From the NCBI GenBank assembly GCA_043819555.1, contig JBDREQ010000027.1, positions 1 through 64,000 on the forward strand: a stretch of DNA of 64,000 bases. The letters are read 5' to 3'. A program made the position numbers and the translations under genes. This document shows, one piece after another, positions 6,059 to 31,291 of the stretch. The notes beneath the pieces are model-generated. The model ran no database searches. It was not told the origin of the DNA and worked only from the letters and a program-made list of their open reading frames with translations. The stretch comes from Candidatus Zixiibacteriota bacterium. GTDB lineage: Bacteria > Zixibacteria > MSB-5A5 > GN15 > JAAZOE01. Position 1 is the stretch's first letter. Each line of letters opens with the position of its first letter.

Positions 6059-7117
6059 ATGGCCGGAAAACCCGCAGTTTGCGTCGGAGATCAAACAGCC
6101 CATGGGGGCGTTATAACTGGCCCCGGGTGCCCGACGGTATTAATCGGAGGCAAACCGGCGGCGGTGATGGGGGATATGCATGTTTGCCCGATGCAAACCC
6201 CTGCGGTAGTTCCCATTCCACACGTAGGCGCAACAGTTATTGCCACAGGAGTATTAGTCTTGATAGGTGGTAAACCGGTGGCTCGCATGGGAGATACGGC
6301 GATTTGCACCGGTCCCCCGGACGCATGCATCGTCGGATGCCCTACGGTTTTAATCGGTGACGGCGGCGGCGGTGGCGGCGGAGCCGGAATGGGGCAAGAT
6401 GCCAAAAAGGCGACCGGTTCGACGGCAGCCGTGGAAGATAAAGAGGCACATTACCTCGACGTGAAATTCAAAGATAAAGGCGGCAAACCGATTACTGGAG
6501 TCGATTATACAGTCAAGGGTCCTGATGGTCGCAAGATTCCGGGGAAACTGGTAGGGCAGATTAAGAAAATCGGCGTCGAAGAGGGAATTTATGAGATTGA
6601 GTTGAAAGCCATCACCGACGCCAAATGGTCGAAAGAATCGGCCAAATTGGGCGACAAAGTAAAACTGCAGGCCGAAACTTCCGGCATCGAGGATGGTACC
6701 GACGCTGAATTTAATATATATGTTTCGGATATAAATTTCCCTGAAGAAAAATTGACAGCAATTACAACAAAAGTATCCGGCGATAAGGCAGAAGTTGAGT
6801 GGGAATTAAAAATTGATAAAGATTTATTATCAATACAGGACGGCAAAGAAAAAAAGAAAAATTACAGCTCACCTTCATTTTGCTTTGAAGTTATTGCCGA
6901 TGGTTCCAAAAGACGCTCCAAGTACACTACTTATAAAGCCGAAGTCAAAATCAAATTGATAGATAAAGACGGCAATCCTGTAAAAGACGCCAAGTACCGG
7001 GTGAAAATGCCGAATGGCAAAATCGTATCTGATAAACTGGATTCCAAAGGCGAGGCGACTGTTAAAGATGTTCGCCCGGGACGGGTGCGCGTTTCATATG
7101 AACCAAAGAAAGATTGA
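6059..7117 (+). CDS. PAAR-domain spike tip protein with C-terminal extension
   Basis: Three PAAR-like motifs (GKPAVCVGD, GKPAAVMGD, GKPVARMGD) with His/Cys candidate Zn ligands; poly-Gly linker; beta-rich C-terminal domains. Confidence 0.92.
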   Translation: MAGKPAVCVGDQTAHGGVITGPGCPTVLIGGKPAAVMGDMHVCPMQTPAVVPIPHVGATVIATGVLVLIGGKPVARMGDTAICTGPPDACIVGCPTVLIGDGGGGGGGAGMGQDAKKATGSTAAVEDKEAHYLDVKFKDKGGKPITGVDYTVKGPDGRKIPGKLVGQIKKIGVEEGIYEIELKAITDAKWSKESAKLGDKVKLQAETSGIEDGTDAEFNIYVSDINFPEEKLTAITTKVSGDKAEVEWELKIDKDLLSIQDGKEKKKNYSSPSFCFEVIADGSKRRSKYTTYKAEVKIKLIDKDGNPVKDAKYRVKMPNGKIVSDKLDSKGEATVKDVRPGRVRVSYEPKKD

Positions 7118-7132
7118 CATTAGCGAGGATTT

Positions 7133-10100
7133 ATGCATGGTCCGGAAGTAGTCGGTGTTGGCGCTGAAGCGGTGGCTGATGCCGGTGGTGAAGCCGAACA
7201 TCGAATTGTTGCCATACCAATTGATATCATTGAATTTGAAAACACTTTGTTCAATGATGGCAGTTCGGTATTGATGCCGGATCGGGTTAATGATGCTGAA
7301 GCCGACACCCCTCCTCCGCCCGGTTTTGCCCTCATTGCTCTGGCTTATAAGCAATTTGAGATGGATGACCGCAAGAAAATGCTGGTGTCGGGTCATCATG
7401 ACGCTGGCGAAAATTTTGCGGAAAATCGAAGCCTTTCAGAATTTCGTGCCAAGAGCGTTCTATATTTATTGACTGGCAATAAGAATCAGTGGGCGGTAGT
7501 TTCGGCCGGGCATCATCAAATAATAGATTTTAAAAGAGTAATGGCTTATTTCAGCCGTGTTAAAGGTTGGAATTGTGCTCCTCCTATGATAAACAATGAG
7601 TGGGCGGAAGCGGATGGGCCGATGGTTCAACGATTTTTCAACCGTTATAATCGTTCAGCATCAAGAGCCGCACGAGTTCCCGGTAATTTTCATGAAGCGA
7701 TAAATACAAGTGAAAACCATCTCTGGCCGGAAAGGGCCTGGGAAGTAGTGTACGATCTTTATATGGATGGCATCAGGCGGGCTCTGGGCGTGCGATTGAC
7801 AGAAATGAATACTCTGCGGGGAATGCATCAATATGCCAATCCGGCTCAATGGCTGTCATGCGCCAATAGAATTCCAGTCCATGCTGATTTTCAGGATCGC
7901 TATCGGGGCGGTAATAATAATTGCCGGGTGGAGATATTGTTTTTCAATCAGGACATTAATGTTCTAACCTGCCCTGTAGCGGAAGCTGTCGCCGAAAGGT
8001 TTCCAATGTGCGAGCGGGGAGGATATGAACTTACTTTTTGCGATATTGAGGACCTCAATGCCTGGCCCTATCATTTGAAATTTACCTATTACAATCGAGT
8101 TAAGAATTCGGTTGAAAATGTTATTAATTGCCTGGAATTAAAGGCCTACTCCGGAAACAGACGACAAGAAGTCAATAATGTACGACAGTCATTTAGTGAT
8201 GGAGTCTATACGGTTAAGGTTCCCCAAAACAGAATCCGAAATCAGATTCATTTTGGATTTGAAACGGTTCCGGGCGATCCATACCCGCCGGGCAATACGA
8301 TCTTTCTTTATACCGATGCCGCGGCTTCGGTCCCGGAAAGAAGATCCTTATCAACCGCGCAGGTGACGGCTCTGACGGCTCTAAACCGACAGAAATATTA
8401 TGATTTGCCTTACAAATGGTCCACCCGCAACTACTGGACCCGATATCAGGATGGGCGCAATATCGAAGGCGGTCGTTATCGGCAGGTTGTCAGAAGAGAG
8501 CTTCGTTTAAAACCGCATGGCAACAATAAGACTAAAGCCAGCGAACCACTGACGTTTTCGCTGGATGATATAGTATTGGCAAAGAACAACCACAGTCAGC
8601 AGATAAAAGATTTACTTCCCAACGGGACGACCGAACGAAATCTGAACAATAATTCCCGTTATGCGCTATTTCATATCGAGCACCGCGATATCGCGGGTCA
8701 GCCGGAAGTCGCTTATGATAATAAGAAACTTAAAGCGTTGAGGATTCACGACCCCAAGGTTGATGAGCCGAGTTTTACCGATGTCGAATTTAATAAGAAT
8801 TTGATCACCGATGTTCCCGATGATACCAGAGTAATTTGTTTCGCCGGCAAATTTCATGATGTTTATGATAAACGGTCGCATGACCGCGATCCTGAATTTA
8901 GTTTTAATCGCGATCATGTTATGGGAGCTCGTTTGGCGGTTTTGGAAGATACATCGATTCATATTAAGAAAGTAGTCGATGCTGAAAATGACGCTGATGC
9001 GCGGACAAAAAACTACGGACTTAGGAAACGAAACGATTTGGCGGCGGTAGGCAATTATGAGATGCACTATTTTCATAACTGCGCCACGCTCAATAATAAA
9101 ATGCTGGCTTATCTAATTATTTACTGGTCAACCCGTCTGACTCGAGTTAATAAATCGGGAGGCAGACAACGGGGCACCGTCGCCGATGTGACCGATCATC
9201 GCGAAGCGGGCATGGATAATGCGATGAAACGGACCAATAAGAACTACCTGATAACAAAGCACGGTCCTCCGCCGGCGCCTCCTCCTCCCGATGCGGATCC
9301 GGTCCCGGATCCCCATGATATCATAATTCGGCCGTTTCACTTTTATGAGTGCAAGAGAGATGGCCGTGGAGGCAAAGCAAAAGCAGTGACTAATATCATT
9401 CTCAATTCTCTCAGCGGCGGCGGGGCTGCGGGGGCATGGATGATGCCGACCGAAGCACAATTGCGCGCTCGAGATTTTCAGGACGATCCCAATTATTTTG
9501 CCACGCCCGATCCCGATAACAACCTCGCGGATACGGACGGGAATACTTTTAATGTGCTGACCAATCATCATGAATTCGGCCACGCCACGGGTAATTGGGA
9601 TGATTATCTTTATGATTTTGAAGACAGCTCCAGCAATAATTGGGATGATTTACCCAAATACAACCAGCCATATACCGCTGAAGGCGGACCATATGTATGC
9701 GACAAATTGTCGCGTATGCGGATAAACCGCACGCCGCGCATGAGAGATTTTTGGAAATTTGTATGCTGGCTGCACGATGATTCGGTCGATAACACAAAAC
9801 CGTTGCATCTTTTCTTTCACAATACCGAGTTCAAGCTGACGTATAAAGCGACCGGCGCCCTGACTCACAATTTTCTGCTTGATGACGCGCACCGCAACGT
9901 GGCTGAGGCGGCTCGGACGGAAATAAATTATGCCATTGTACCGAATGTAGCTTGTGATTTGCTGTTGTATAAGCTTGGTGACGGCGAGTTGAGCCGTATG
10001 ATCCACGCCGGCCAGGTTTTTGATTCAATTCTGGTCGTGAGGACGAAGCTGGCGATAAAGTATGATATCAATCCGACAGCCTGGGATTTTACAACCGCGC

Positions 10101-10537
10101 GGGCGTGGGCGCAAAATTTAAACACCGCTGTGGGAACAATGCTCAATGATAAATTCCGAATAGGCTGTACTACAGTTGATAATGGTTTTAAAAATATTTA
10201 TTTGTATTTCGTTCCTCATTATCAAGTCTATGAGCTGGATACAACTGGCAGCGTTCCCGCTTTTTCATATGCCGGAGCGGCTCCGGGCGATGCACATTTC
10301 GATTTAAGAGTGAAATTCCAGGACGGGCATGCTACGGCCGTTGCGGCAAAAGTGATTAACGTGGATTGGGGCGACGTCGCCGATAGCGGCGCGGATTTAC
10401 GCACAAGACTTATTCGACGTTTGTTTGGTAAAACCGGCACGGGCAATCTGGTCAAGGCCGATTTTGCGAGAATTGTCGCATGGGTGCAGAGCCATTATGG
10501 TGACGCGGGCAACGCCTATGCCATTCATGATCTATAA
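7133..10537 (+). CDS. Putative T6SS-associated protein/effector: degenerate OmpA-like domain plus C-terminal zinc metallopeptidase motif
   Basis: LVSGHHD..N..LSEFRAKSV...NCRVEILFF (OmpA-like); HEFGHATGNWDDY (HExxHxxGxxD); no signal peptide; directly after PAAR. Confidence 0.65.
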   Translation: MHGPEVVGVGAEAVADAGGEAEHRIVAIPIDIIEFENTLFNDGSSVLMPDRVNDAEADTPPPPGFALIALAYKQFEMDDRKKMLVSGHHDAGENFAENRSLSEFRAKSVLYLLTGNKNQWAVVSAGHHQIIDFKRVMAYFSRVKGWNCAPPMINNEWAEADGPMVQRFFNRYNRSASRAARVPGNFHEAINTSENHLWPERAWEVVYDLYMDGIRRALGVRLTEMNTLRGMHQYANPAQWLSCANRIPVHADFQDRYRGGNNNCRVEILFFNQDINVLTCPVAEAVAERFPMCERGGYELTFCDIEDLNAWPYHLKFTYYNRVKNSVENVINCLELKAYSGNRRQEVNNVRQSFSDGVYTVKVPQNRIRNQIHFGFETVPGDPYPPGNTIFLYTDAAASVPERRSLSTAQVTALTALNRQKYYDLPYKWSTRNYWTRYQDGRNIEGGRYRQVVRRELRLKPHGNNKTKASEPLTFSLDDIVLAKNNHSQQIKDLLPNGTTERNLNNNSRYALFHIEHRDIAGQPEVAYDNKKLKALRIHDPKVDEPSFTDVEFNKNLITDVPDDTRVICFAGKFHDVYDKRSHDRDPEFSFNRDHVMGARLAVLEDTSIHIKKVVDAENDADARTKNYGLRKRNDLAAVGNYEMHYFHNCATLNNKMLAYLIIYWSTRLTRVNKSGGRQRGTVADVTDHREAGMDNAMKRTNKNYLITKHGPPPAPPPPDADPVPDPHDIIIRPFHFYECKRDGRGGKAKAVTNIILNSLSGGGAAGAWMMPTEAQLRARDFQDDPNYFATPDPDNNLADTDGNTFNVLTNHHEFGHATGNWDDYLYDFEDSSSNNWDDLPKYNQPYTAEGGPYVCDKLSRMRINRTPRMRDFWKFVCWLHDDSVDNTKPLHLFFHNTEFKLTYKATGALTHNFLLDDAHRNVAEAARTEINYAIVPNVACDLLLYKLGDGELSRMIHAGQVFDSILVVRTKLAIKYDINPTAWDFTTARAWAQNLNTAVGTMLNDKFRIGCTTVDNGFKNIYLYFVPHYQVYELDTTGSVPAFSYAGAAPGDAHFDLRVKFQDGHATAVAAKVINVDWGDVADSGADLRTRLIRRLFGKTGTGNLVKADFARIVAWVQSHYGDAGNAYAIHDL

Positions 10538-10555
10538 TATTTGGGGTTTATATCA

Positions 10556-11665
10556 ATGAGTGATATATATAGCCGATATTTCGCCAATGCACGGCATGAT
10601 GGCTGGGTGAATCAAGTTGTCAGGTCCGATGGCAATATTGTCTGGCGGCGGATTATTACCGGTGATGAAAAAGTGTCGGCCGAATCGCGGCTGCTTCTTA
10701 GTTCTGATAAGCAGATTGTCGTCGATGGGATGAAAAAAATATTCGCCTATTCATCGGATGGTGCGCAGCTTTGGGATCGCGAGAAGTATTATGGATGTCA
10801 GGTAGCTCTGCAAAATGATTTGGTCAAATATAGAGCGGCCGACGAAGTAAATTTAATACATGCGGTATCGGTCGTCGATGGGAAGAAAGCTAATGATTTA
10901 TATCTTTCGGGAATAACCAAAAATTGTGATTTGGTTTTCTTCGAGCCTTTGGAAAGAGGACTAATCGCCCAGCTGCAATACATCTCTTCGCATGATAAAC
11001 CGTCAGATGAAATGCTAATCTATCTACTTTCGGGAACCGTACCGGGTTTTGACTGGAGTTTTCTCTACAATGGTTCCAAAGGTTTGCTGATACCTCTGGT
11101 TAATATTGAAAACAGGCGATATGTGACTTCGATACCGGGTAAAGTTTTGGTTTTTGACCTCGATAGCAGGGAGAGAACTCCCGAACCGTTGAATCGCTTC
11201 TCCTTGCCACTGGGAGAAAATACAGCGTGGATGAGTTGCGGCCGGGATGGGAAATTGTATTTTACGGGGTGCGGTCCGGAAAGGCTTGAGGTCGCAATTA
11301 CGGAGTTTAACGGTGAACAGACCGCGCTTCTGAAAAATTTTGATATTCCCGCGGAAAAACCGATCGCACCGCCGATTGTATCAGATGAGCATATATTTAT
11401 TCTAACTGCGTCGATGTTGATTGCGATAAGAAATGGAGACATAGATTGGACTTTTAAGCCGCTGCGGGGTCGTATGAAATATGTGACCGCTCTTTCCGAC
11501 GGAACGGTTTTGGCGGCGGCTAATGATATCGTCTATCATCTCAATCAAGCCGGCGAGTACTTTTTTGAGACAGTTATTGATGAGCCGATCGCGACGCCTC
11601 CGGTTGTTGATGGAAACGGGCGGGTTTATGTCGCCAGCAGGGATACGCTCTATGCGATTGAGTAA
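10556..11665 (+). CDS. PQQ-like beta-propeller protein (possible immunity or accessory protein)
   Basis: DGNIVW, DGAQLW, GDIDW and PIATPPVVDGNGRVYV propeller repeats; no signal peptide. Confidence 0.7.
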   Translation: MSDIYSRYFANARHDGWVNQVVRSDGNIVWRRIITGDEKVSAESRLLLSSDKQIVVDGMKKIFAYSSDGAQLWDREKYYGCQVALQNDLVKYRAADEVNLIHAVSVVDGKKANDLYLSGITKNCDLVFFEPLERGLIAQLQYISSHDKPSDEMLIYLLSGTVPGFDWSFLYNGSKGLLIPLVNIENRRYVTSIPGKVLVFDLDSRERTPEPLNRFSLPLGENTAWMSCGRDGKLYFTGCGPERLEVAITEFNGEQTALLKNFDIPAEKPIAPPIVSDEHIFILTASMLIAIRNGDIDWTFKPLRGRMKYVTALSDGTVLAAANDIVYHLNQAGEYFFETVIDEPIATPPVVDGNGRVYVASRDTLYAIE

Positions 11666-12173: not shown

Positions 12174-12608
12174 ATGAAAAACAAGATATTCACACTCGAG
12201 CTTTCTGATAACTGGGTGGACCGAACTACATTTTTATATATGGGCCCGGAAGACGACGGGATGCAGCATATTTTGAATTTTTACATTGAACCGGATGTTG
12301 GCGACGCGGATTTATATGAGTACGCACGAGAGAGAATTGAGAACGCTGTGGCGGCGATGCCAGATTCCGAGATTATCAAAGAAGAAGAAAAGAATTTGCC
12401 CAACGGTAACGCCGCATATGAATGCGTCTATAAATGGATATCTCCCGATGGAAAGAAAATATTTCAAAAACTAATGTTTTTAATTTTGGACGGAACGGGG
12501 TATAATTTCTCGGCCGGTTTTTCGAAGAAGACTTTGAAAACACTCAGGCATGAAGTTGACGCGATAATAAATTCGTTCCAACCTTTGCCGCAACCGGACG
12601 ATGAATAA
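12174..12608 (+). CDS. DcrB/PsbP-like (DUF1795, EagR-type) T6SS effector adaptor
   Basis: FTLELSDNWVDRT start, 144 aa, ends DAIINSFQP, typical of the DUF1795 fold; T6SS effector context. Confidence 0.75.
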   Translation: MKNKIFTLELSDNWVDRTTFLYMGPEDDGMQHILNFYIEPDVGDADLYEYARERIENAVAAMPDSEIIKEEEKNLPNGNAAYECVYKWISPDGKKIFQKLMFLILDGTGYNFSAGFSKKTLKTLRHEVDAIINSFQPLPQPDDE

Positions 12609-12610: not shown

Positions 12611-13753
12611 ATGCCGTTGAAGTACACCAAAGCTACCGATAGCGAGCATGAAATAACTCTGGATTCTTCACTGGTATCGGCCAGGTGGAAATCGGGTTCG
12701 GCTCCCATTGGAGGCAAGGCGGAATTTGAAGTAATAACTGCTTTTGTTGGTAACGGGGCTAAGATAAAAGTGACCGGAAAATCATCCGGCAGCAGCAGCC
12801 TCGGCAAAATTTCATCCACAATAAAAAATAATGTTTTTGTCGATTCGTTCGAAATCCCTGACGATGTGGAGATTGATGAGGAAGTTTATTTTGAAGTGAA
12901 GCTGTCGGCCAATGGTCTTTCCGGCGAATCGAATCATATCCTGGCGCGGCCTCGCATTGTCGTAAGCAATATGCGCTGGAGCGCGGAAGTGGCCCGCCGG
13001 GGGGATACCCTGAAATTATCGGCCGACGTTTCCGGGTGCCGCGAAAACGATGAGGCAAAAATCACTATTTATGAGTATGACAGTGATGGAGTCCACGATC
13101 GCATATGCGAAATTCCGGCCAATGTCCGTGAAAATAAAATTGAAATCGAATGGGAATATGAATATCACGAAGATACCGATGAAATCCCGACTCAGGAAGA
13201 ACTGGACCAGTATGGGAGCAGTTACAATCCTCCCGAGTACTTTTTTGTAATCGAGATTAACGGACAGAAATTCGGCAACAAGCAGGAATCGAAAATTTTG
13301 AAGTTTAAGGATTTCTTCGAGCTTCAGGTGATTGACCGCGAGGGTATGTTTATCCCGGATAAGGATTATAAAGTTACCCTTCCCGATGGAACGGAAAAGG
13401 AAGGCAAAACCGATAGCGATGGATATATCAGAATAAAAGATGTTCCACCCGGACCTTGTCTTGTAGATTTTCCAGTAAAGGAAGATGAAGGTTCGGATGA
13501 TGGTAGCGATGCACAGACAGATGGTGATGATACTCAACAATCGTCTGGCGGAAATACCAGTTCGGGAAGCGATACCCAAACGGAAGGGAATAGCGGATCG
13601 GGCGGAGGCACGCAAAGTTCGGCCGGCGGCAATACCAGTTCGAGAAGCGATACCCAAACGGAAGGGAATACCGGATCGGGCGGAGGCACGCAAAGTTCGG
13701 CCGATGACAGCGCCGGCGGGGGAAGCGATTCTCAAACGGATGGCGGTGTTTAA
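12611..13753 (+). CDS. T6SS accessory protein paralogous to the PAAR C-terminal extension, with acidic Gly/Ser tandem-repeat tail
   Basis: Shares WS..A..GD..KL.A..SG, EW, Y..P...F and Y.V..P.G....K.DS.G....KDV.PG motifs with 6059-7117. Confidence 0.7.
   Translation: MPLKYTKATDSEHEITLDSSLVSARWKSGSAPIGGKAEFEVITAFVGNGAKIKVTGKSSGSSSLGKISSTIKNNVFVDSFEIPDDVEIDEEVYFEVKLSANGLSGESNHILARPRIVVSNMRWSAEVARRGDTLKLSADVSGCRENDEAKITIYEYDSDGVHDRICEIPANVRENKIEIEWEYEYHEDTDEIPTQEELDQYGSSYNPPEYFFVIEINGQKFGNKQESKILKFKDFFELQVIDREGMFIPDKDYKVTLPDGTEKEGKTDSDGYIRIKDVPPGPCLVDFPVKEDEGSDDGSDAQTDGDDTQQSSGGNTSSGSDTQTEGNSGSGGGTQSSAGGNTSSRSDTQTEGNTGSGGGTQSSADDSAGGGSDSQTDGGV
13547..13703 (+). repeat. Two-copy 78-bp tandem repeat (26 aa unit) within CDS
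   Basis: AATACCAGTTCG at 13553 and 13631; units nearly identical; degenerate third fragment near 13721-13740. Confidence 0.9.
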
Positions 13754-13797
13754 TTTTATCGTAAAGGGCAAAAAATATTTTTCCATTTAATTAATTT

Positions 13798-16140
13798 ATG
13801 GCTGATGTTTATAGAATAAATACCGGGAAGCTGCAGCAATTGCCGTTTCAATGCGCTCATGGTAATCATTGCTGGGTCAGGCGGGCTTTTAGCTTGCAGG
13901 AGAAATACTTTGATGCCCTGAAAAAACTGGAAGCGGAAAATGTAAAATGGAAAACCCGGCTGGAAAGCGCGGAATTTCTGCATGAAGTTGCCAAAGCGGC
14001 TGCTGGCGCCAAGGGCATTGACAAAGAAGACGTCTGGGGTAATATGCGCCCCAGTATGGGCCGGAGCGATGATCCGTCAGAATACGAGCATACCTATCTG
14101 AACGAAGATATTAAGCGAATGCACGCCGCGATCAAGAATCAACGTAAGGCCGCGGAAGAATCCTCGGGAAAATTAATAGCCTGTCTAAAAAATAAAAAAT
14201 TCCAAAAGCATCTCGTCACTTATCATGCGAATTTTCAAATATCCCCACAAACGGCAGCTGATGTATATGGAGCCGTTTTAGAACCTCAATCAAGCGGCGG
14301 GAAGATATTATATCGGGAAATGGACCATTTCCTGGCGCTTTTGACCGAGCATTTGACCGCGACCAAAAAGGGAACTGATTTTCTGGAACTGGTTCTCAAA
14401 AAAGATTGGGTCGAGAGCAATATCGCGTTCGCCGACCTATGGGGTTATACCGCCAAGATAAACGCTTTGACCGAACCGGTTGGAAAATTTTTCTATAATG
14501 CCTCGCCGATAATTGTTGCCAAAATACAAGAGCTAATCAATGAGAAAAAAGTCAAAGATATCGGCCAAATCCTGAATGATCCGGATCTCAAACGTCATTT
14601 TGGTTTTCTCAAAGACAAATTGAAATTCGATGTTTCCAAATTGCTCAAAAAACGGGCTGATAAATTCGCCGGCAAAGCTTCTCGCGCACGGAAATATCTG
14701 GAGCGCCAAAGCGATTGGAAAAAATCGGTCAAGCAGTTTCAGGATGTGATGGATGACGCCGAAGCGCAGACGCAATTGAATAACGCGTGGATGGGAGTAA
14801 CGCTCGATACTGTTGCATTCGCGATATCGTTGGTCAAAATCGTTGCCGATTTTAAGGAAGCTAAGTGGCAGGACTGGATGGGGCTGGTTGGCGATTTTAC
14901 CGGGTTGGTCAAAACCACCGCCGAAATCAGGCAAGCGCAGGTACTTTTAGTAAGTGGTAAAGGGCAGTCGCATCAGGCGGCCAAGGCTTTTGCCAAACGA
15001 TTGGGAGTTTTAGCAGGGATAGCGTCGGTTATAATCATGTGCGGAGAAATCTATAAAGGCATCAAGGGCAGCGACTGGGATAAAGTAGCTCTCAATGCTG
15101 CCGGTATCGCGATTACCGGTGTTGGAATGTATGCCGCCTTTATGGAGATGGCATTGCTGTCGGGAATATGCACGGTTCTGGCAATTGTACTAGCCATTAT
15201 TACCGCACTGGTAGTTGACCCTGAAATAATTGACTACATTGAGGATACATATTGGGGTGAGGATTATAAGGACAGGGAAATTCCTATCGGTAAGACTATT
15301 CATGAATACTATAAGAGAATGTTCAAAATGTATCTTTTCTTTAAGATTGATGAATATGACAGCAATGATTCGCATATTTTGATTGAGTGCGGAATGATGA
15401 CCGACACGACACCGATATTTTTAGAAATTATCGAGGAAAAAGGTAAAAGGCTCCTGGGTCGTGAACGCATATTTCCCATCAATAAAGATGTTTCCGGGAT
15501 GGGTAAAGTCGCCAAAGATAAACCGAGTTGGGATAAAAATTGGCCGTTTTATGCCAAGCAGTTAAGGATATATAAGCCATGGGATATCTGGGCCGGCGAA
15601 AACGGGATCAAGAGGGATAATTCAACGATATATACCATTAAGGGCGGGATTGATCCGTCGCGCGATAAGAAAATGAAAATCGAACAAATGGCCCAGTATA
15701 AGACAATTGATGGCGTTGTTTTCCCGGTCGTGCAAAAACCGATATTATGGAGCAATCCTCCGGCCAATGAATCGTTTTACGGCAGCCAGGTTTCTTATAC
15801 CGGCCATCAAAGTACGCAGTATATACCATATCCTTCCGGTGGAAAGGTTGATGTGCATGTCTTTACTCGGTACGGCTCAGGGTGCGAAATCAATATTAAG
15901 GCGACTGAGGATCGCACTTGGCCGGTTCCCAATAGAAGTATTTCAAATATAAAGGCGCCGGTCAAAAAGGATAAAACAATCGTTCCGGTTCCAATAAAAG
16001 CTCCACCCAGCGACAATTACTATGAATTGTGGATAAAGATAACTTTGGCGGATTCTAAAGGAAAGCCCGTAAAAACAATAAGTCCCCAAAATGTCCGAAT
16101 TGCGTATAGGAATTATATAGAGAAATTGAGAAAAAGCTAA
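13798..16140 (+). CDS. Putative membrane-active (VasX-like pore-forming) T6SS effector
   Basis: No signal peptide; central cluster of Gly/Ala-rich hydrophobic helices ending in DPEIIDYIEDTYWG; last gene of the effector operon. Confidence 0.55.
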   Translation: MADVYRINTGKLQQLPFQCAHGNHCWVRRAFSLQEKYFDALKKLEAENVKWKTRLESAEFLHEVAKAAAGAKGIDKEDVWGNMRPSMGRSDDPSEYEHTYLNEDIKRMHAAIKNQRKAAEESSGKLIACLKNKKFQKHLVTYHANFQISPQTAADVYGAVLEPQSSGGKILYREMDHFLALLTEHLTATKKGTDFLELVLKKDWVESNIAFADLWGYTAKINALTEPVGKFFYNASPIIVAKIQELINEKKVKDIGQILNDPDLKRHFGFLKDKLKFDVSKLLKKRADKFAGKASRARKYLERQSDWKKSVKQFQDVMDDAEAQTQLNNAWMGVTLDTVAFAISLVKIVADFKEAKWQDWMGLVGDFTGLVKTTAEIRQAQVLLVSGKGQSHQAAKAFAKRLGVLAGIASVIIMCGEIYKGIKGSDWDKVALNAAGIAITGVGMYAAFMEMALLSGICTVLAIVLAIITALVVDPEIIDYIEDTYWGEDYKDREIPIGKTIHEYYKRMFKMYLFFKIDEYDSNDSHILIECGMMTDTTPIFLEIIEEKGKRLLGRERIFPINKDVSGMGKVAKDKPSWDKNWPFYAKQLRIYKPWDIWAGENGIKRDNSTIYTIKGGIDPSRDKKMKIEQMAQYKTIDGVVFPVVQKPILWSNPPANESFYGSQVSYTGHQSTQYIPYPSGGKVDVHVFTRYGSGCEINIKATEDRTWPVPNRSISNIKAPVKKDKTIVPVPIKAPPSDNYYELWIKITLADSKGKPVKTISPQNVRIAYRNYIEKLRKS

Positions 16141-18848: not shown

Positions 18849-18880
18849 AGATTAAACATAAATAGAAAACGGAGGATTTG

Positions 18881-23452: not shown

Positions 23453-25141
23453 GTGAACGATAAATCCGAAGCCATACGTCATTCAAAATCAAAATCACAG
23501 CAGGAAATTTTCGCCGAGATGCATCGGCAATTGCGGGCTTTTGATAATACTATCCCCGCCGCTCCGGAAAGGCTGGATCCGGTTTTACGAATATTACTCC
23601 AGTTGTACGCGCAACAATTGGAGAGAATTGACGGCCGGCTGGATATGGTCTGGGATGTTGCCGTCAATACTTTGATTCGATCGATGTGTCCGGAAAGTAT
23701 GCGCTGGCCGGTTCCGGCGTTTACAGTCATGAAGTGTAAAACCAAAGATCCCGTGGTTCAAGTCGATATCCATACCAAATTTTTCTATAAGGAAAAACGG
23801 GAGGGAGGACAGACCTTTTTCTTTTCGCCGCTTAAAACCGAAAAATTGCTTAATGTTCGCATTGATAAAGTGCTTGTTCGGGTCGATGACAATCTGGTCG
23901 ATTTATCTCCCGTAAGCGAAGAAGAGATGTCTTCAACTTCCCGAATGAGGACGTCGTTCCCGGCGGGAGCCAAATATCAGATTTATATTGGTCTCGATTA
24001 TTCCGGATCCCCAGTTGATTTGGCCGGGAGTACGATCTTCCTGAATGGAATGCCTGATGTTCTCAAACAACTTCGCTGGGCCCGGTGGTTTCCTGGCTCA
24101 AATTTTGGATCATTTCAGGAAGACTGTAGTTTTTGCCCCGGTTTGACCAGTTCGCTGGAATCAATTTTCGCCGACAATGGCAGTTATTCGGATTGGGGGG
24201 GGTTGCGAAATAGTTCGGAGTTATTCAAATCTCTGGAAGATAGTTTTATTGTTCTTCCTGAGAATTTTACTTCGACCTGGGAGTTGGGGCCGGCCGATCC
24301 CGAACTAGTAGATTTGGCTCAAAAAGATGGCTTGCGTGATCTCGATGATCTGGAGCATTTGTACTGGATTCGCCTTGATTTACCGGAAGGCGGCGATAAG
24401 TCACGATTGCAATCATCTTTTGAAATAAACTTTGACAGCTTTATCGCGGTCAATAAAAATGATCTGACTCTCTTCAAGCATACCGGCGGGAATCGTCTGG
24501 TTGAAGTAGAGCTGCCTGAGGATTTATCAAGTATTCTCGAAATAACCAGTGTTTTTGATAGTCACGGGCGTTCTTATACCCCGCGTCATTTGATTGCTCA
24601 ATCATCAGACAGGTTTTATTCCCCGGAAGAGCGCAATAATCGGCTTGTCCTATGGTTTGATTTCCCGTCGGAACTCGAGCTTCCTCCGGAATCGATAACG
24701 GTCAATTATTCAGTCACGGCCGGGGTTGCCGCAAACGGTATTGAGGCGGGGATGATTGAGGAATTATATGAGAACCATCCCGGGATAGATTCAGCGGTTA
24801 ATGTTATTCCGGTCAATGGCGCAATTCCGGCCAAGACCGAAGAACAAATCATGACCGAGGTCGCGGCCCGTTTGCGAAATCGGGATCGGTCGCTGAGTTT
24901 TTCAGGAATTTCAAGATGGGCGAAGATTTTTGATCCCCGCATAATCAGCTCCGAATGCGAGAATGGTATCGAGCGATTGAATTCCGGCGTCCGAAGATGC
25001 ATCATCGCCAAGGTCACGGTAAAAAAAGATAAATTTTATTCCATTGAAGAAATTGAGCTTTTGAAAACAAGGCTGGCAGCGTTCCTGAAATCACGCTCGC
25101 CGGTAAATACGCATTATCGGGTGGAGATTATTCAGGGATGA
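23453..25141 (+). CDS. tssF: Baseplate wedge subunit TssF
   Basis: LDPVLRILL, P.....PVPAFTV, C-terminal LRNRDR..S...W, gp6-like; position between tssE and tssG. Confidence 0.8.
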   Translation: MNDKSEAIRHSKSKSQQEIFAEMHRQLRAFDNTIPAAPERLDPVLRILLQLYAQQLERIDGRLDMVWDVAVNTLIRSMCPESMRWPVPAFTVMKCKTKDPVVQVDIHTKFFYKEKREGGQTFFFSPLKTEKLLNVRIDKVLVRVDDNLVDLSPVSEEEMSSTSRMRTSFPAGAKYQIYIGLDYSGSPVDLAGSTIFLNGMPDVLKQLRWARWFPGSNFGSFQEDCSFCPGLTSSLESIFADNGSYSDWGGLRNSSELFKSLEDSFIVLPENFTSTWELGPADPELVDLAQKDGLRDLDDLEHLYWIRLDLPEGGDKSRLQSSFEINFDSFIAVNKNDLTLFKHTGGNRLVEVELPEDLSSILEITSVFDSHGRSYTPRHLIAQSSDRFYSPEERNNRLVLWFDFPSELELPPESITVNYSVTAGVAANGIEAGMIEELYENHPGIDSAVNVIPVNGAIPAKTEEQIMTEVAARLRNRDRSLSFSGISRWAKIFDPRIISSECENGIERLNSGVRRCIIAKVTVKKDKFYSIEEIELLKTRLAAFLKSRSPVNTHYRVEIIQG

Positions 25142-26049
25142 TATATTTCGGCAAAGATAAAATGCCCGATTTCTGTCATCGGCGACATCCCTTTCATTAT
25201 ACAACCGCTCTCAACCTGCTTACCCGCATGGGAATTGATGTGGATCGGATAAACCTTCTGGCGGTAGGCGAGTATGAGAATTATAAAGGCGAAGTCATAA
25301 ACCAGACTCCGCCTCCGGAAACCGATTTGCGCAAAGACGCGTCGATAACGCTGGAGATTGGATTTCCCAGCGCGGTTGACTTTATGCCTTATCAATTTTT
25401 CTATGGACTTGAAGGCCGGTTTAGCCGCGGCGACTGGGAGGAAGGCTCACGTCATTTCATGGCGCCATTTGACGGAGCCGTAATTCGTTTTGAATCCAAG
25501 ACAAGATACCATGCCCTGAAATATAATTTTGGGATTGTCGAACGGGAATACTTGGAAAAATATTTAGCGCTTTTCGATTTTGATGTCAAAAAGGAAACAG
25601 GAAGCGATAGCGGCTACTCTCTCTGGGCGGCGTTATTGCCCGTTTTTAACGAATGGGCCGGAAATGCCGCCGGCGTTGAGAAAATTCTTCAGGCGGTTAT
25701 GGATTACAAATTTAAGATAATTGAAAATCTCCCGCGCCAATATGAAATTCCCAATGATCTGCGCTATCATCTTGGATCGATGACCGGCCGGTTGGGACGT
25801 GAATCGATTTTGGGCGATTCTTTTACCGAATGTGATTCATGTTATGGCGTACTCGTTAGCGGAATCAGGCGCGATGAGATTAGGGATTTTTTACCGGGCA
25901 AATCGAAGCGGAAGAAAATAGAGACCCTGCTGGGCCTGTGTATGCCGAGCAATCTTGAATTTAAACTGATATTTCGAGTTTCGGACAATGAGACGATAAT
26001 AGGAGATAAAGATAAAAACGCTATTTTAGGGTACTCGGTTCAGATTTGA
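25138..26049 (+). CDS. tssG: Baseplate subunit TssG with N-terminal PASTA-like segment
   Basis: R.FMAPFD, LLP......GN, LG..SILGD, FLPG, LGYS (Bacteroidota TssG-like); overlaps the tssF stop. Confidence 0.75.
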   Translation: MIYFGKDKMPDFCHRRHPFHYTTALNLLTRMGIDVDRINLLAVGEYENYKGEVINQTPPPETDLRKDASITLEIGFPSAVDFMPYQFFYGLEGRFSRGDWEEGSRHFMAPFDGAVIRFESKTRYHALKYNFGIVEREYLEKYLALFDFDVKKETGSDSGYSLWAALLPVFNEWAGNAAGVEKILQAVMDYKFKIIENLPRQYEIPNDLRYHLGSMTGRLGRESILGDSFTECDSCYGVLVSGIRRDEIRDFLPGKSKRKKIETLLGLCMPSNLEFKLIFRVSDNETIIGDKDKNAILGYSVQI

Positions 26050-26150: not shown

Positions 26151-27593
26151 ATGAGCGATATGAAATTGCAGTCGGTTAATTGGCAGGATGGGATGCTCAT
26201 CAGCAAAAAGCATCTTACCCAGCAGGAAATATATTTTGAGGAGTTGATTCGCTGGCATGCGCTGCGTGTCTCTGATAATTACGGTCTCATCAGGAAATCG
26301 GCTTCCGGTCAGGGAGCCTTATCATTGAATTTGACTTTGGCTGGAAATCGGCTGCGGGTTGAGGTCAATCGTTGCCAGGCAGTCACATCAGAGGGATATT
26401 ATATCAATGTCGATGAAAATCGAATTATTAAGGGCGAAGCCGATGTCAACGCCACCGTAATACCGGTATATCTGGCGGTTAATCCTGAATCCAAGAAACC
26501 GGAAGGCGATCCCGAACCTTCGGAAGATATTCCTCGTTTACCTTATTTGACTAATGATTATTCTCTTCATGTCGGAACACCTCCGGATTTGCCGCAGGGG
26601 TGCTTTATCCAGATTGGCCGGTTGAATATCAGCGGCAGCGAAGTCATGGTTGCTCCTGACTACTATCCCCCATGCCTGAATATTTTTGCCGATAGCCGGC
26701 TTTCTGAGAAGGCCAGTGAGCTGAAAAACCGAGTGGAAAATTTATTATCGCTATCAACGCGTGCCCACGGAGCGATTACTGTCAGCGGGACATTAAAGGG
26801 TGAGAGTTCCGGCCTTCAGATTGCATTCAAAGAAACTTTGGGACGAGTAATTTTGCATTTGGCGGCTACCAATGATGGATTCGTAACCGGCTCCAATGCC
26901 GGACATCCTCTTGATATGATTGTCTATTTCAAGAAATTATTCCGCGTAGTTTCGACTCTTTTGAACCTTTATCCGGCTTTGAAAGATTACTTGAACGAAA
27001 AGTTTTTTACTCGAGAATTACGGAGCAACATCGGCAGTTTCCTGGCATCGATTGATTCATTTATTCTAATGGAATATAATCATCAGGATATCGGAGGCAT
27101 GATAAAGGCCATAGAAGGAATCTTGAACCCGTTACGCGACCTGTTCGCCTTTTTGGCCCAGACCAAAAAGGAAGAGCTGGGCGAACAGGCTATGGCGACC
27201 GAAACTTTGACATATTCCGGAAGGACTTATCGAAACCTGGCATATTCATCAAGTCGTTTAGAGAAGGTAGGTGAATTGTGTTACCTGATCATCAATATTA
27301 CTTCCGCATCGCCGGTTTCCGATACCGTAATTCTAATGTCAAAATCACTGTTTTCCGATAGTGAATGGCGAAACATGCAGGTTCGGCTGGGGATTAATGA
27401 TGCCCGGGGATTGGGTGAAACCGATCCGGTTGATATTGATACCCTCGCGTTTGGAAATAAAGTCGCCCTTCACCCTCGTGATTTATTGGAGTCGTCATCG
27501 GTTCATCAGATGACGCTTATTTTCCGCGGCGCCCCCGATTCTTCGAAATTTGATGGATTGGGGCAGATGGATATAATTATATACAGTCTTTAA
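26151..27593 (+). CDS. tssK: Baseplate-membrane complex connector TssK
   Basis: VNWQDGMLISKKHL N-terminus, NYGL, C.AVT..G..I, G.P...E...RLP, DYYPPC. Confidence 0.85.
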   Translation: MSDMKLQSVNWQDGMLISKKHLTQQEIYFEELIRWHALRVSDNYGLIRKSASGQGALSLNLTLAGNRLRVEVNRCQAVTSEGYYINVDENRIIKGEADVNATVIPVYLAVNPESKKPEGDPEPSEDIPRLPYLTNDYSLHVGTPPDLPQGCFIQIGRLNISGSEVMVAPDYYPPCLNIFADSRLSEKASELKNRVENLLSLSTRAHGAITVSGTLKGESSGLQIAFKETLGRVILHLAATNDGFVTGSNAGHPLDMIVYFKKLFRVVSTLLNLYPALKDYLNEKFFTRELRSNIGSFLASIDSFILMEYNHQDIGGMIKAIEGILNPLRDLFAFLAQTKKEELGEQAMATETLTYSGRTYRNLAYSSSRLEKVGELCYLIINITSASPVSDTVILMSKSLFSDSEWRNMQVRLGINDARGLGETDPVDIDTLAFGNKVALHPRDLLESSSVHQMTLIFRGAPDSSKFDGLGQMDIIIYSL

Positions 27594-27615: not shown

Positions 27616-28530
27616 TTGGATATTAGATCATATATAGACGAGCTTTTTGCTTACATCGATACTTTTGAAAACCGGTATGCTGAGTTCAAGACAGAGGCAT
27701 TTATACAAACCTTTACCGGTATTTCCGCTGTCTTCCAGGCTTTGCGAAAACAGCGCGATAAGGCTATTGATGTTGATCAGTATTTCCTGAGAAAGATACA
27801 GAAATCACCGTTGACATCTTCTGACCTGCGCCAGATTACTCTGCAGGTTTTGATTACTTTCTTCGAATCGGAAGCGGATATTGACGGTCAGTCAAACAAG
27901 TCCTATCTGTATTGCCGCGACCTTCGGGGAACCAAGCGGGATATGACATTTTTTGAGGGACAACTTCTGAATTTACTTTTCAGAGAAGGCAGCCTGAATA
28001 ATAATTTCCAATTGAATTTGTTTTTCATCGAAGAATTGGCGCGATATATGAATAAGTTTGGACGGGACGTGGACTCGGGATTGACACCCGAGACTTTTGA
28101 TGCGATGTCCGATCCGGCCAAGTTTTTGGAACTGGCGCGGAGAAGGATATCCATGGGCAAGGAATTATTAACCGATCGCAATAGCCTCGAATTTCACCTG
28201 CTTCGCATTGACGCTTTTTTGAAACTTTCCAAAAAATCTAATCTGTACAACGATTACCTTCAGGAATGGAAATATCTCAAAACATCAAGTTTCTGGTCGA
28301 AAGTGACTGAATTTTCTTCCGAGGTTTGGGGAAAAATCAAAGGAGCTTTTGCCAGTTTTGCTTATTTCAGATTGGTGATTAGTCAGCGTCCGGCGGCGTA
28401 TGGTTTTTACGCGGTGATAATAATCTTGTTTATTTTGCTGGCGTTTTATGTGCCCAATAAATGGATTAGTTATTCCGAGGAGACATTAGAAAGATTTAAC
28501 CAAAAAGCCAGTGAAATACAGGGCGGGTAG
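27616..28530 (+). CDS. Helical cytoplasmic protein with a single C-terminal TM (TssL-like topology, family unassigned)
   Basis: No signal peptide; TM AYGFYAVIIILFILLAFYV near the C-terminus; TTG start; immediately after tssK. Confidence 0.65.
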   Translation: MDIRSYIDELFAYIDTFENRYAEFKTEAFIQTFTGISAVFQALRKQRDKAIDVDQYFLRKIQKSPLTSSDLRQITLQVLITFFESEADIDGQSNKSYLYCRDLRGTKRDMTFFEGQLLNLLFREGSLNNNFQLNLFFIEELARYMNKFGRDVDSGLTPETFDAMSDPAKFLELARRRISMGKELLTDRNSLEFHLLRIDAFLKLSKKSNLYNDYLQEWKYLKTSSFWSKVTEFSSEVWGKIKGAFASFAYFRLVISQRPAAYGFYAVIIILFILLAFYVPNKWISYSEETLERFNQKASEIQGG

Positions 28531-28536: not shown

Positions 28537-30735
28537 ATGAAATTGGGCAAGATATTCAAATTATTCAAAAAGGGCGCCAAGGCGGCCGGCGGAGGCAAAG
28601 GCAAAAAGGGAGAGGTTCCCTCTCACTGGCCGTCGGGTAATCGAATCGGTATTTACGGCCATTCCAATTCGGGTAAAACGGTATATTATACCGTTCTCAA
28701 TGAAGAATGTAAAATCTCCAAACGATTGCAGATATCGGTGACCGATAATACCACTGCGGGTGAATTTTTATCGAATTATCGTTCAATCTGGGGATTGGGG
28801 ACGGCCGCCAGCGATGGAACGGTTGTCGATTTTCAGAGTGAGAAAAAATTCCCCGATCCGACGCCGTCGGACAAGTTGCTTCAGTTTAACGCCATTCTTG
28901 ATCGCAGCAAAAAACTGTCGATTGTGGCTTATGACTATGGCGGCAAGGCCATCGCGATTTCGGGTCAGAATGACCTGGCTGACAAAGTCATAGATTATAT
29001 GACGGGTTGCGACGGGATTTTATTTTTCTATGATCCCAAGATTATGGGAGCCGAACTTGAAAGCCAGGCGCATGTAGCGTCGTTTGTAAATATCCTGGAA
29101 AAACTGGCCCCGCTGAAATCAAGATTGCCGATTCCGATTGGGATAGTTATAACGAAGTCCGATATCCTGCCGGGTTTTTCCGGTGAAGAACAGGTTTCAT
29201 TGATAAAATCTGAGGACGAATATCTGGCATCCGAGGACTTTGAGTCATTTCTCGAAAATATACTGGCCGATCCCAGAGTAAATTCCAATGCCGCCTGGGC
29301 CGGTTCGGTCAGGAATATTCTGATTAGATTGAAGGATTTCCTGCGGGTTGTTCTGGAAAGGACTCTCGATTTCCAGATATTTTTTATTTCAGCAATGGGA
29401 CAAACACCTGAAAAAATCGGAGCCGATATTGGACGGTCGATTTACTCCCCTCCGGATAAAATTCGCCCCGTTGGTGTTAAAGAACCATTTTACTGGCTTT
29501 TGAATTCAGTCGTAAGAAGCAAGCGGATTTCCAAATTTAGATCATTGGCAAAAATAGTTGCGACAATAAGCATCATTTGGTGCGTTATTTTTTCGATTCC
29601 ATTTTTGTATCATCATAATTTTCTACTGCCCCGGACGGAACGGGTTGAAGAAAATATTATTTCAGCCTACGATGGTAAAATTTTCAATACAACTGACCGT
29701 GAAAGAAGGCGGATAATTCAGGCTTATGATAAATACGAGCGGTCGTGGGCGGTAAAATGGTTTTTTGACAAGTATCAGGCGCCGTCGCAGAGGATTCGCG
29801 AAGCGTATAGAAGATTTAATCAGCAGGAAGCAATTCAGCTTCTCAATGGCCATATATCCAGGATGGCGGCCATTGTTACTGATACGAATTTCTGGCCCCG
29901 ATTAAATCCATCCGATCAGTCTTTGATACTCGCACCGGAGCATAACAGTCTGTTGGAGTCTCTGCAAAGTTACCATCAAGGAGACGAGTCCTCGATACTA
30001 TACAAGCGCAGCGGCCGGGCGCTGGTTTATTGGGATCTGTTTTCACAGGGAGTGATTAGTCCTAATGATACGGCAGTGTGGCAAACAATACAACAACAGA
30101 TTCAAACGGATCGAGGACTATACGGGCAGGAATTATCCAAAGAAGAAATGGCTCTTGGTGATGCGCTGTCCGAACGAAAGATAAAGAAGGTCCAGAAAGT
30201 GGCCGCCAAAAAGGCGGCGGTAGAACTGGGCGATTTGATTGATAAAATCAACGGAAATGATTCCCCGTCCTATCGGCTGGATCGGGCAGTTGCCGAACTA
30301 AGGACAATTAAAGGCCAGCTTGACAGTGAGGCAGACAAAGCCAACCTGACTATGATAAACAATTATATTTCCGACGCCAAAAAATGGTGGAACCCGAGAA
30401 CCTATTCATTTAAGGCTGAAAGCATACCGGGGGACGGACATTTGCACGTCGCGGTTGCATCCAAGGGACAGGATCCCGTTTGGGAGGAAGGGGATCAAAT
30501 ACTGGCCGGGTACGAAAAGAAAATAACGTGGAAAAAGGATGATGTTATTCATATCGCCCTCGATACTCTGGGTGCTCCGGAAATGTGGGGGAGTGAAGCG
30601 AGCGATAAGAAAATTCTAAAAAATGACTTTTCTATATTTGACATGGAAGGCGAAATTTCGTTTGATAATATAGGCAAGAAAATTAATATTACTTTCAATC
30701 CGGGACTCAAAGGAAGAATGCCGGAGTTGAAATAA
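28537..30735 (+). CDS. Membrane-anchored P-loop GTPase-like protein with large extracytoplasmic domain (TssM-like topology)
   Basis: G1 GHSNSGKT, G3 YDYGG, G4 ITKSD, G5 ISA; TM IVATISIIWCVIFSIPFLY; about 370-aa C-terminal region. Confidence 0.75.
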   Translation: MKLGKIFKLFKKGAKAAGGGKGKKGEVPSHWPSGNRIGIYGHSNSGKTVYYTVLNEECKISKRLQISVTDNTTAGEFLSNYRSIWGLGTAASDGTVVDFQSEKKFPDPTPSDKLLQFNAILDRSKKLSIVAYDYGGKAIAISGQNDLADKVIDYMTGCDGILFFYDPKIMGAELESQAHVASFVNILEKLAPLKSRLPIPIGIVITKSDILPGFSGEEQVSLIKSEDEYLASEDFESFLENILADPRVNSNAAWAGSVRNILIRLKDFLRVVLERTLDFQIFFISAMGQTPEKIGADIGRSIYSPPDKIRPVGVKEPFYWLLNSVVRSKRISKFRSLAKIVATISIIWCVIFSIPFLYHHNFLLPRTERVEENIISAYDGKIFNTTDRERRRIIQAYDKYERSWAVKWFFDKYQAPSQRIREAYRRFNQQEAIQLLNGHISRMAAIVTDTNFWPRLNPSDQSLILAPEHNSLLESLQSYHQGDESSILYKRSGRALVYWDLFSQGVISPNDTAVWQTIQQQIQTDRGLYGQELSKEEMALGDALSERKIKKVQKVAAKKAAVELGDLIDKINGNDSPSYRLDRAVAELRTIKGQLDSEADKANLTMINNYISDAKKWWNPRTYSFKAESIPGDGHLHVAVASKGQDPVWEEGDQILAGYEKKITWKKDDVIHIALDTLGAPEMWGSEASDKKILKNDFSIFDMEGEISFDNIGKKINITFNPGLKGRMPELK

Positions 30736-30763
30736 AACATGTCTTGGTTGAGGAGTTTGTATA

Positions 30764-31291
30764 ATGAAATTCAACACAATATATAGAAAATCGTTTAGTG
30801 CGGGCCTGATTGTATTTTTCTGGTTTGCATTTACGGCCTTGGCCTCCGGGGCCACACTGCAGCTTCCGCAAGGTACCGATGTGAAGCTGAAATTTGCACC
30901 GGGAATTAAGATTTCTTCGGGGAATCTGGCCGCTGAAGTGCCGATTATTTGTTACCTCGCCGAACCAATTTTAATCGGAGGAAAGACGGTCGTTGAGGAA
31001 GGGGCTCAAGCGACGGCCAAAGTCGCCGAAGTGAAACCGGCCGGCAAAGGCGGTAAAGGCGGCTATATCAAGATCGAGTTTATTGAAGTTGAAACAAAGG
31101 GCGAATATAAAACGGTTGACGGTTCAAAAATCAAATTGACCGGATTCATAGAAAATACCGGAAAGAATAAGAAAACAATGTCGTATCTATTCATCTTTGG
31201 CCTTTTCATCAAAGGCAGTCAGGGTGAGATTAATCCTAATTCGATATATACCGTCAAGACGGCAGGAAGTACGATTCTGGAAAGTAATTAG
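30764..31291 (+). CDS. Small exported beta-rich protein resembling the VirB10/TrbI core domain
   Basis: Signal peptide (..ALA); LPQGTDVKL...ISS...PILIGGKTVVEEGAQATAKV.EVKPA...G.I.I.F...DG.KI.L pattern; GAGGAG RBS. Confidence 0.55.
   Translation: MKFNTIYRKSFSAGLIVFFWFAFTALASGATLQLPQGTDVKLKFAPGIKISSGNLAAEVPIICYLAEPILIGGKTVVEEGAQATAKVAEVKPAGKGGKGGYIKIEFIEVETKGEYKTVDGSKIKLTGFIENTGKNKKTMSYLFIFGLFIKGSQGEINPNSIYTVKTAGSTILESN

Follow-up and report, generated by a model that had tools for sequence, protein, structure and literature searches.

We describe here a gene cluster from a Candidatus Zixiibacteriota bacterium that probably encodes a complete, cell-anchored, ClpV-recycled type VI secretion system (T6SS) lacking both of the T6SS membrane complexes that are known, the unrelated TssJLM and TssNQOPR, and in which the products of the genes following tssK, here called X, Y and Z, are the proposed anchor. 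The cluster lies in positions 1–64,000 of contig JBDREQ010000027.1 (assembly GCA_043819555.1), and this whole stretch of 64,000 nt is referred to as the window. Judged from topology and gene linkage, X-Y(-Z) is most likely a third kind of T6SS membrane anchor. X and Y are strictly linked to the described T6SS across two phyla, and the tail and baseplate of the system appear by sequence comparison to be distant relatives of those of the Bacteroidota system T6SS-iii. A literature search, which left supplements aside, returned no description of a T6SS from Zixibacteria or of an X-Y anchor.

The T6SS core genes form one co-oriented block on the plus strand (6059–31291) of closely spaced open reading frames (ORFs), all of them intact. 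Pfam, NCBIfam and hhalign searches showed that the core is complete, with PAAR, a split ClpV, TssB, TssC, TssD, VgrG, TssE, TssF, TssG and TssK (Table 1), and no second copy of any T6SS gene was found elsewhere in the genome. An earlier note on this DNA had placed the genes from PAAR to TssK in this block, and each was recovered where the note had put it. Its assignment of the sheath and tube to the Bacteroidota type was upheld by Pfam for TssC and TssD and by tblastn for TssC as well. Both ClpV and TssK are present, which agrees with its reading of the cluster as a T6SS and not an extracellular contractile injection system; to our knowledge the latter have neither protein. The TssF of the window has no Pfam match, PF05947 being matched by two of five aligned relatives. 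TssK carries a C-terminal extension of approximately 100–125 residues compared with Bacteroidota TssK, the hhalign alignments covering residues 1–355 of 480, and this C-terminal part is conserved in 25 sequences. The two ClpV ORFs, which contain the Clp_N, AAA and AAA_lid_9 (D1) and the AAA_2 and ClpB_D2-small (D2) families with both AAA+ domains intact by Pfam, meet in a TAATG stop/start overlap between the two AAA+ domains. Because the same split is seen in genomes G149 and G008 (families f1 and f5), while ClpV is fused (813–882 residues) in G244, G253 and locus L022 (f16, f17 and a second phylum), the split is a natural, lineage-specific feature and not an assembly error.

The known anchors were sought with hidden Markov models in all six frames of the entire genome; the assembly comprises 79 contigs totalling 3.35 Mb and is 97.1% complete and 0.37% contaminated. 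No match to TssO, TssR, DotU (TssL), the IcmF-related family (TssM), SciN (TssJ) or ImpA_N (TssA) was obtained, and the VipB-family TssC (PF05943) was likewise without a match in this genome. The models for TssJ, TssL and TssM (PF12790, PF09850 and PF06761) matched the E. coli control; those for TssO and TssR were silent in the control genomes too, so that these two blanks are weaker. A TssN match on contig C76 was rejected, as it reached 19.9 bits against a cut-off of 30.3 and sits in a RodA/FtsW-like protein beside a penicillin-binding protein. Because the TssO and TssR models matched nothing in the control genomes, a direct hhalign test was added, in which the family profiles of X, Y and Z were compared with all 29 proteins of two Bacteroidota T6SS-iii loci, those of B. 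finegoldii (TssN, two TssO, PKD/TssP and TssR) and Hymenobacter volaticus (TssN). The highest probability was 1.6%, and the same procedure gave 99.5% for TssK, 99.0% for TssF and 95.2% for TssG as positive controls. The earlier note had recognized none of TssJLM, TssNOPQR and TssA, and the genome searches likewise gave no match above cut-off with the models for TssJ, TssL, TssM, TssA, TssN, TssO and TssR.

An incomplete or decaying T6SS, or a binning artefact, in which canonical anchor genes are merely missing from the assembly could be suspected in a 79-contig metagenome-assembled genome (MAG) with a split ClpV. Against this stand the completeness and low contamination given above, the intact ORFs, the conservation of the ClpV split together with its stop/start overlap, the lack of a T6SS-i TssC in any of the 13 other members of the family and the recurrence of this gene set, in this order, in assemblies that are closed or nearly so, for example G149 (one contig) and G188, and we regard this explanation as very improbable.

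The modeled structure of X is all-helical and cytoplasmic, and its sole hydrophobic segment, a predicted transmembrane (TM) helix at residues 261–279, lies inside a long C-terminal helix. None of the 47 members of the X family matched any Pfam family or gave a DotU signal, a profile search against PDB sequences found no relative of X (best E 0.037) and the ESM Atlas returned no usable match. In Y, the single TM helix is predicted to separate the cytoplasmic GTPase from a C-terminal part of 380 residues. A profile of Y found nothing significant among PDB sequences (best E 0.21), and a search of the ESM Atlas with residues 380–732 gave a best match at chance level (0.82). Z had no Pfam or PDB match in profile searches.

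A survey of 285 species genomes from the phylum for the linkage of Y to the T6SS found Y in 146, a PF17541-type TssC in 145 and both in 143. Five genomes have only one of the two. TssC stands alone in two of them, which are 58% and 69% complete; of the three with Y alone, two have a completeness of 64% and 77% and the third gave a weak match (E 6.6e-4). The Y and TssC genes are mostly separated by 9–10 kb and share a strand, as in G148, G149, G138, G008 and G244, whereas in G252 and G253 they lie far apart. In 18 of 19 further genomes Y is immediately preceded by tssK and an X-like gene, the exception being G170, in which Y is far from tssC. X directly follows tssK in every locus examined, and the order ClpV-B-C-D-VgrG-E-F-G-K-X-Y is kept in three divergent families (three of the four loci compared); in the fourth family (G253) X stays behind tssK and Y has a Z-like gene and a PAAR gene as its neighbours. 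In each of the 11 loci L004–L014, the gene after Y is Z. The order tssK, X-like, Y-like and GAP1-N2-like was also found on two MAG contigs of a second phylum, on one of which ClpV, TssB, TssC and TssD are adjacent, and a Y-like gene is present in 12 of 206 species genomes of that phylum. Conservation of the gene set in related MAGs, a point raised by the earlier note, is seen in a tssK-X-Y order that recurs across families and in a second phylum. The note had also proposed a lineage related to the Fibrobacteres–Chlorobi–Bacteroidetes group, and close homologues of X and Y are indeed named Zixibacteria or Candidatus Zixiibacteriota, a phylum that belongs to this group. Canonical T6SS-i (VipB) occurs in 25 of the 285 genomes (3/3 in family f7, 3/3 in f19, 13/15 in f20 and 0/13 in f1), a distribution largely exclusive of the described system, and is accompanied by a full-length TssM in other Zixibacteria families (genomes G025–G027 and G267–G284). 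In the second-phylum loci L021 (13366–16065) and L022 (14429–17167), inner-membrane-anchored proteins of 712 and 912 residues with immunoglobulin (Ig)-like repeats (Big_1, bMG3 and CarboxypepD_reg) come after tssK, X, Y and a GAP1-like gene; these may be additional envelope components, with a loose resemblance to the PKD-domain protein encoded in the Bacteroidota locus.

A tblastn search with the TssC of the window against 72,556 plasmids identified 13 records, ten from Bacteroidota and three phage-like sheath proteins from Deinococcus; no record was from Pseudomonadota. The Bacteroidota matches are 27–30% identical and eight of the ten are annotated as DUF5458 family protein. We then computed a maximum-likelihood tree of 32 sheath proteins, comprising 17 of the Zixibacteria type, three from the second phylum, six from Bacteroidota (all plasmid-borne), five of T6SS-i (from other Zixibacteria families) and one from Deinococcus. 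The Bacteroidota TssC form one clade (100/99; present in 100% of 200 bootstrap trees), whose sister is the second phylum (96/97), followed by the Zixibacteria families f16 and f17 (84/90). The root is unsure because the T6SS-i and phage-like branches are very long. The clade of the window's TssC falls outside the Bacteroidota, second-phylum and f16/f17 groups, and the sequence is not nested in the clade of the six Bacteroidota TssC, the point for which a TssC tree had been suggested.

According to Bongiovanni et al. 2024 (PMC10781749), T6SS-iii has TssB–K, ClpV and VgrG together with a membrane complex, TssNQOPR; that paper and a 2026 review (PMC13584744), which lists four T6SS subtypes, both place T6SS-iii in Bacteroidota alone. 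The Zixibacteria system resembles T6SS-iii in that its TssC and TssD share the Pfam families of their T6SS-iii counterparts (PF17541 and PF17642), TssK, TssF and TssG are detectably homologous and both systems are without TssA and TssJLM. It differs in having no detectable TssN, O, P, Q or R, in a TssC that is only 27–30% identical and lies outside the Bacteroidota clade, in its longer TssK, in its host phylum and in its anchor candidates, a tail-anchored protein and a GTPase-TM protein.

The likeness to T6SS-i lies elsewhere. The order of tssK, a tail-anchored protein and an NTPase-TM-periplasmic protein mirrors tssK-tssL-tssM, and the domain order of Y mirrors that of TssM. The GTPase domain of Y itself was matched weakly by PF19993 (DO-GTPase2) in 48 of 48 Y-family members (best E 4.5e-7; 14.2 bits for the Y of the window, below the cut-off of 27) and, again weakly, by IcmF-related_N (PF14331) in 26 of the 48 (best E 0.0019). 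By hhalign, it reached 99.9% with soluble DO-GTPase-like representatives, which in turn reached 95.5% with the TssM NTPase. Comparison of Y with five canonical TssM of 1121–1153 residues, taken from T6SS-i loci of the same phylum, gave 36.5%, and 51% (E 1.5e-4) in a longer alignment of 272 columns that pairs the P-loop and the TKxD-L-x-GF and FFxSxTG motifs. These profile comparisons place the Y GTPase, a TRAFAC GTPase, in the DO-GTPase family, itself related to the TssM NTPase, and indicate that Y is only remotely similar to TssM. Because every other TssM family domain is absent (no IcmF-related, IcmF_helical or IcmF_C match by Pfam) and only one TM helix is predicted, against three in the criterion for TssM, Y was not classed as TssM. 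When a profile of the Y GTPase domain was run against 1.84 billion representative sequences, 870 matched at E <= 0.001 and 49 at E <= 1e-30. Twenty-six distant relatives were scanned for TM helices, and 21 have the GTPase followed by a single TM helix, with none at threshold in the other five; a Pfam scan of 35 distant relatives found canonical IcmF in none.

X and Y could then be viewed as extremely diverged orthologues of TssL and TssM, that is, as a reduced T6SS-i anchor on a T6SS-iii-like tail, which would fit the gene order, the IcmF-related_N matches and the long alignment with TssM. We consider this quite improbable. X gave no DotU signal by Pfam, or by a fold search in which helical folds score poorly, Y has one TM helix and 732 residues where TssM has about 1130, and soluble DO-GTPase-like proteins match Y much better than TssM does. 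The Zixibacteria system also differs from T6SS-i in lacking the DotU, IcmF-related, IcmF_C and SciN families, in having no lipoprotein partner (Z is without a lipobox) and in a sheath that is not of the VipB family. Finally, other families of the same phylum have a normal TssM, so that divergence within the phylum offers no explanation. The claim of the earlier note that the anchor is distinct was supported, with the reservation that the candidates are not wholly unrelated to the known sets, given the kinship of the Y GTPase family with the TssM NTPase.

The affiliation of Y with DO-GTPases leads to the main rival of an anchor, in which X and Y, together with a GAP1-like protein in some lineages, form a membrane GTPase switch that senses an envelope signal and controls the place or time of T6SS assembly, the true anchor being a different one or dispensable. 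DO-GTPases were described from conflict systems, in which they pair with GAP1 and are proposed switches (Kaur et al. 2020, PMC7159879), and Y shares with them not only the GTPase family but, in some lineages, a GAP1-N2-like gene directly downstream. Such a gene, encoding a cytoplasmic protein, directly follows Y in L015, L016 and L021 (PF20013 scores of 28.6, 20.5 and 19.8 bits against a cut-off of 24), which represent two other families and the second phylum; it has no homologue in the window's genome, the GAP1-like gene having been lost in that lineage. Ser/Thr kinases flank the clusters and an FHA protein is encoded in L015, recalling the post-translational control of T6SS-i. Y differs from the described conflict systems in lying inside a T6SS structural operon and in having a TM helix and a large periplasmic domain joined to its GTPase; the systems of Kaur et al. 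(PMC7159879) have a paired second GTPase and a variable effector, and neither of the kind described there is present here. The terms 'T6SS' and 'IcmF' do not occur in that paper, and 'type VI' occurs once.

A switch alone would leave the machine without any anchor in a 97%-complete genome. X and Y are encoded within the structural operon, directly after tssK and closely spaced, and Y occurs in essentially every genome with the described T6SS, which would be unusual for an accessory regulator. We therefore judge a pure switch unlikely. The two roles are not mutually exclusive, and TssM, which unites an NTPase with a scaffold role, is a precedent for a protein that is both.

The Walker B region of Y varies between lineages. 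Whereas DO-GTPases have a conserved glutamate in Walker B (PMC7159879), the Y of the window has DYGGK (residues 133–137; DNA 28537–29520), and the position following DYxG is K, R or Q in ten of 12 aligned sequences and E only in L015 and L016; the second-phylum group has DYKGE. The glutamate goes with a GAP1-N2-like gene downstream of Y, as in L015, L016 and the second-phylum group, and K, R or Q with a Z-type secreted protein in that place, as in the window's clade and L017. The pattern suggests two sub-variants of the X-Y module among lineages that are few and not independent.

Returning to X-Y(-Z) as the anchor, we infer that X, Y and Z bind one another and TssK, that they span the envelope and that the GTPase has a role in the process. 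X would serve as the inner-membrane tail anchor, its helical cytoplasmic domain docking the baseplate, with the additional C-terminal domain of TssK as the probable contact; this is the part that TssL plays in T6SS-i and TssN in T6SS-iii. Y would be the core subunit, with a cytoplasmic GTPase that gates or times assembly, one TM helix, a periplasmic helical stalk and a terminal beta-sandwich reaching towards the outer membrane, a layout like that of a TssM shortened by one third. In the window's lineage, Z would act as a secreted periplasmic partner and, together with the Y stalk, reach the outer membrane. Three runs of a predicted complex of TssK with X(1–255) scored 0.47, 0.00 and 0.00.

Several observations weigh against an anchor role. 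No outer-membrane or lipoprotein partner was found, and the periplasmic part of TssM is about twice as long as that of Y (approximately 380 residues). A fold search with the X model gave no match above background and TssL was not listed, but helical folds score poorly in that search; the lists obtained with the whole Y model were filled by its GTPase domain only, so that the periplasmic part is unrepresented in them. The genome-wide test for the absence of other anchors covers one genome, that of the window, among the 143 with both TssC and Y. The GAP1-N2-like protein after Y in three loci fits a signaling module, and DO-GTPases have been proposed as switches and not as scaffolds (PMC7159879). 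The suggestion in the earlier note that the three genes after tssK encode a distinct trans-envelope complex was borne out in part: they encode membrane proteins that travel with the T6SS across the phylum, and no outer-membrane component was identified.

If X-Y(-Z) is an anchor, it would be the third, carried by about half of the sampled Zixibacteria species genomes and by a second phylum, and smaller than the others, with two or three proteins compared to three to five. It would extend the range of the T6SS to abundant sediment and soil bacteria and represent a case in which a 'conflict-system' GTPase module was recruited into a secretion machine. It would also inform the question, raised by Bongiovanni et al. 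(PMC10781749), of whether anchors were swapped or independently acquired. The Y GTPase links, through the DO-GTPases, to the TssM NTPase, which bears on the origin of the anchors. X-Y may even be the ancestral anchor of the whole T6SS-iii-like branch, having arisen from a DO-GTPase/GAP1 pair that was tethered to the membrane and had a common ancestor with the TssM NTPase; in Bacteroidota TssNQOPR would later have taken its place, and Zixibacteria and the second phylum would keep the link between the two known, apparently unrelated anchors. We offer this scenario as a conceivable one, which we think rather unlikely.

Table 1. Features of the T6SS cluster in the window, with the predicted layout of Y.
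Feature	Position	Strand	Evidence
Promoter-like site TTGACT-18-TATAAT	5988..6017	+	Upstream of PAAR gene; 11/12 consensus matches
PAAR spike-tip protein, C-terminal Ig-like domains	6059..7117	+	PF05488, 67.8 bits
1134-aa protein after PAAR, candidate cargo	7133..10537	+	No Pfam or NCBIfam match
Beta-propeller (PQQ_2-like) protein	10541..11665	+	PF13360, 32.5 bits; position kept in G149
DUF1795/DcrB-family protein, candidate Eag-type effector chaperone	12174..12608	+	PF08786, 28.3 bits (cut-off 27.2)
Variable cargo region, 380-aa and 780-aa proteins	12611..16140	+	780-aa protein weakly BTH_I2691-family effector-like
ClpV/TssH, two ORFs (D1 16306–17760, D2 17760–18848)	16306..18848	+	Pfam, NCBIfam
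TssB, small sheath subunit	18878..19324	+	PF05591 (VipA), 36.3 bits; TIGR03358, 36.8 bits, below cut-off
TssC, large sheath subunit, Bacteroidota-type	19341..20777	+	PF17541, 238.8 bits
TssD/Hcp tube protein, Bacteroidota-type	20816..21220	+	PF17642, 74.6 bits
VgrG spike	21288..23066	+	Phage_GPD, Phage_base_V; TIGR01646, 162.7 bits
TssE, gp25-like baseplate wedge	23075..23449	+	PF04965 (GPW_gp25), 47.1 bits; TIGR03357, 36.6 bits
TssF	23453..25141	+	hhalign 99.0% to Bacteroides finegoldii TssF, 94.7% to other Bacteroidota TssF
TssG	25138..26049	+	PF06996, 59.6 bits; hhalign 95.2% to Hymenobacter TssG, 22.2% to other Bacteroidota TssG
TssK	26151..27593	+	TIGR03353, 54 bits, below cut-off; hhalign 99.5% and 98.8% to two Bacteroidota TssK
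X, 304 aa, tail-anchored; proposed baseplate-docking anchor subunit	27616..28530	+	Topology; model pLDDT 81
Y, 732 aa, proposed anchor core	28537..30735	+	GTPase, TM helix, periplasmic part; model pLDDT 81.6
Y, lysine-rich N-terminus	start of protein		Predicted layout
Y, GTPase	residues about 30–310		Motifs GHSNSGKT, DYGG, TKSD
Y, long helix	residues 315–376		Holds single TM segment 334–352
Y, periplasmic helical domain	residues 387–618		Modeled
Y, beta-sandwich	residues 621–720		Modeled
Z, 175 aa, secreted protein	30764..31291	+	Signal peptide without lipobox cysteine
GC-rich hairpin, likely bidirectional terminator	31313..31343	.	13-bp, between convergent genes

The promoter-like site ahead of the PAAR gene is weak evidence, as the motif scan found one site where 1.4 are expected by chance. 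At the other end of the block, the strong terminator that the earlier note had placed at 31315 corresponds to the hairpin in Table 1: the fold of 31292–31400 is stable (-32.1 kcal/mol, z score -4.3), while the T-tract is weak, so that a consensus terminator scan did not list the hairpin. A search of the 64,000-nt window against Rfam gave no RNA family.

The genes between PAAR and clpV include candidate cargo. The C-terminal part of the PAAR protein has weak Pfam matches to Filamin, SpaA and Big_1, and the sequence of the 380-aa protein resembles this part. A 914-aa relative of the 1134-aa protein (27% identity) occupies the same position in G149, which also has a homologue of the DUF1795/DcrB-family protein at the corresponding place. 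The latter is without a signal peptide, and its family, PF08786, provides the HMM used for finding Eag chaperones of T6SS effectors (10.1101/2020.10.28.356139). The 780-aa protein matches NF041559 with 38.4 bits, below the cut-off of 150, and has three hydrophobic segments. Although the G149 locus is otherwise syntenic, it has neither the 380-aa nor the 780-aa gene. The cargo island (11523–12158 and 12611–16140) also includes a small TM ORF.

Downstream of the hairpin, a convergent operon on the minus strand (31402–35795) encodes a lipoprotein, a secreted protein of 395 residues (sp395; 32266–33453) and two CsgG-like/TPR lipoproteins. In many f1, f2 and f4 genomes the sp395 gene is no more than a few kb from Y, and its product was considered as a possible outer-membrane partner. 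The gene occurs in 161 of the 285 genomes, and because these include families without the described T6SS (f9 6/6, f19 3/3 and f20 13/15), while f16 and f17, which both carry it, have no sp395, the protein was rejected as an obligate part. Two membrane-spanning Ser/Thr kinases flank the cluster (3968–5815 and 35873–37621, both on the minus strand), and in family f5 (L015, 1453–2927) an FHA protein and a kinase are encoded directly upstream of clpV. Some T6SS-i are under threonine-phosphorylation control, which these kinase and FHA genes recall. Near the start of the window, a minus-strand gene (392–2317) encodes a protein of 641 residues that carries a C-terminal sorting domain of type IX secretion (Por_Secre_tail, CHU_C).

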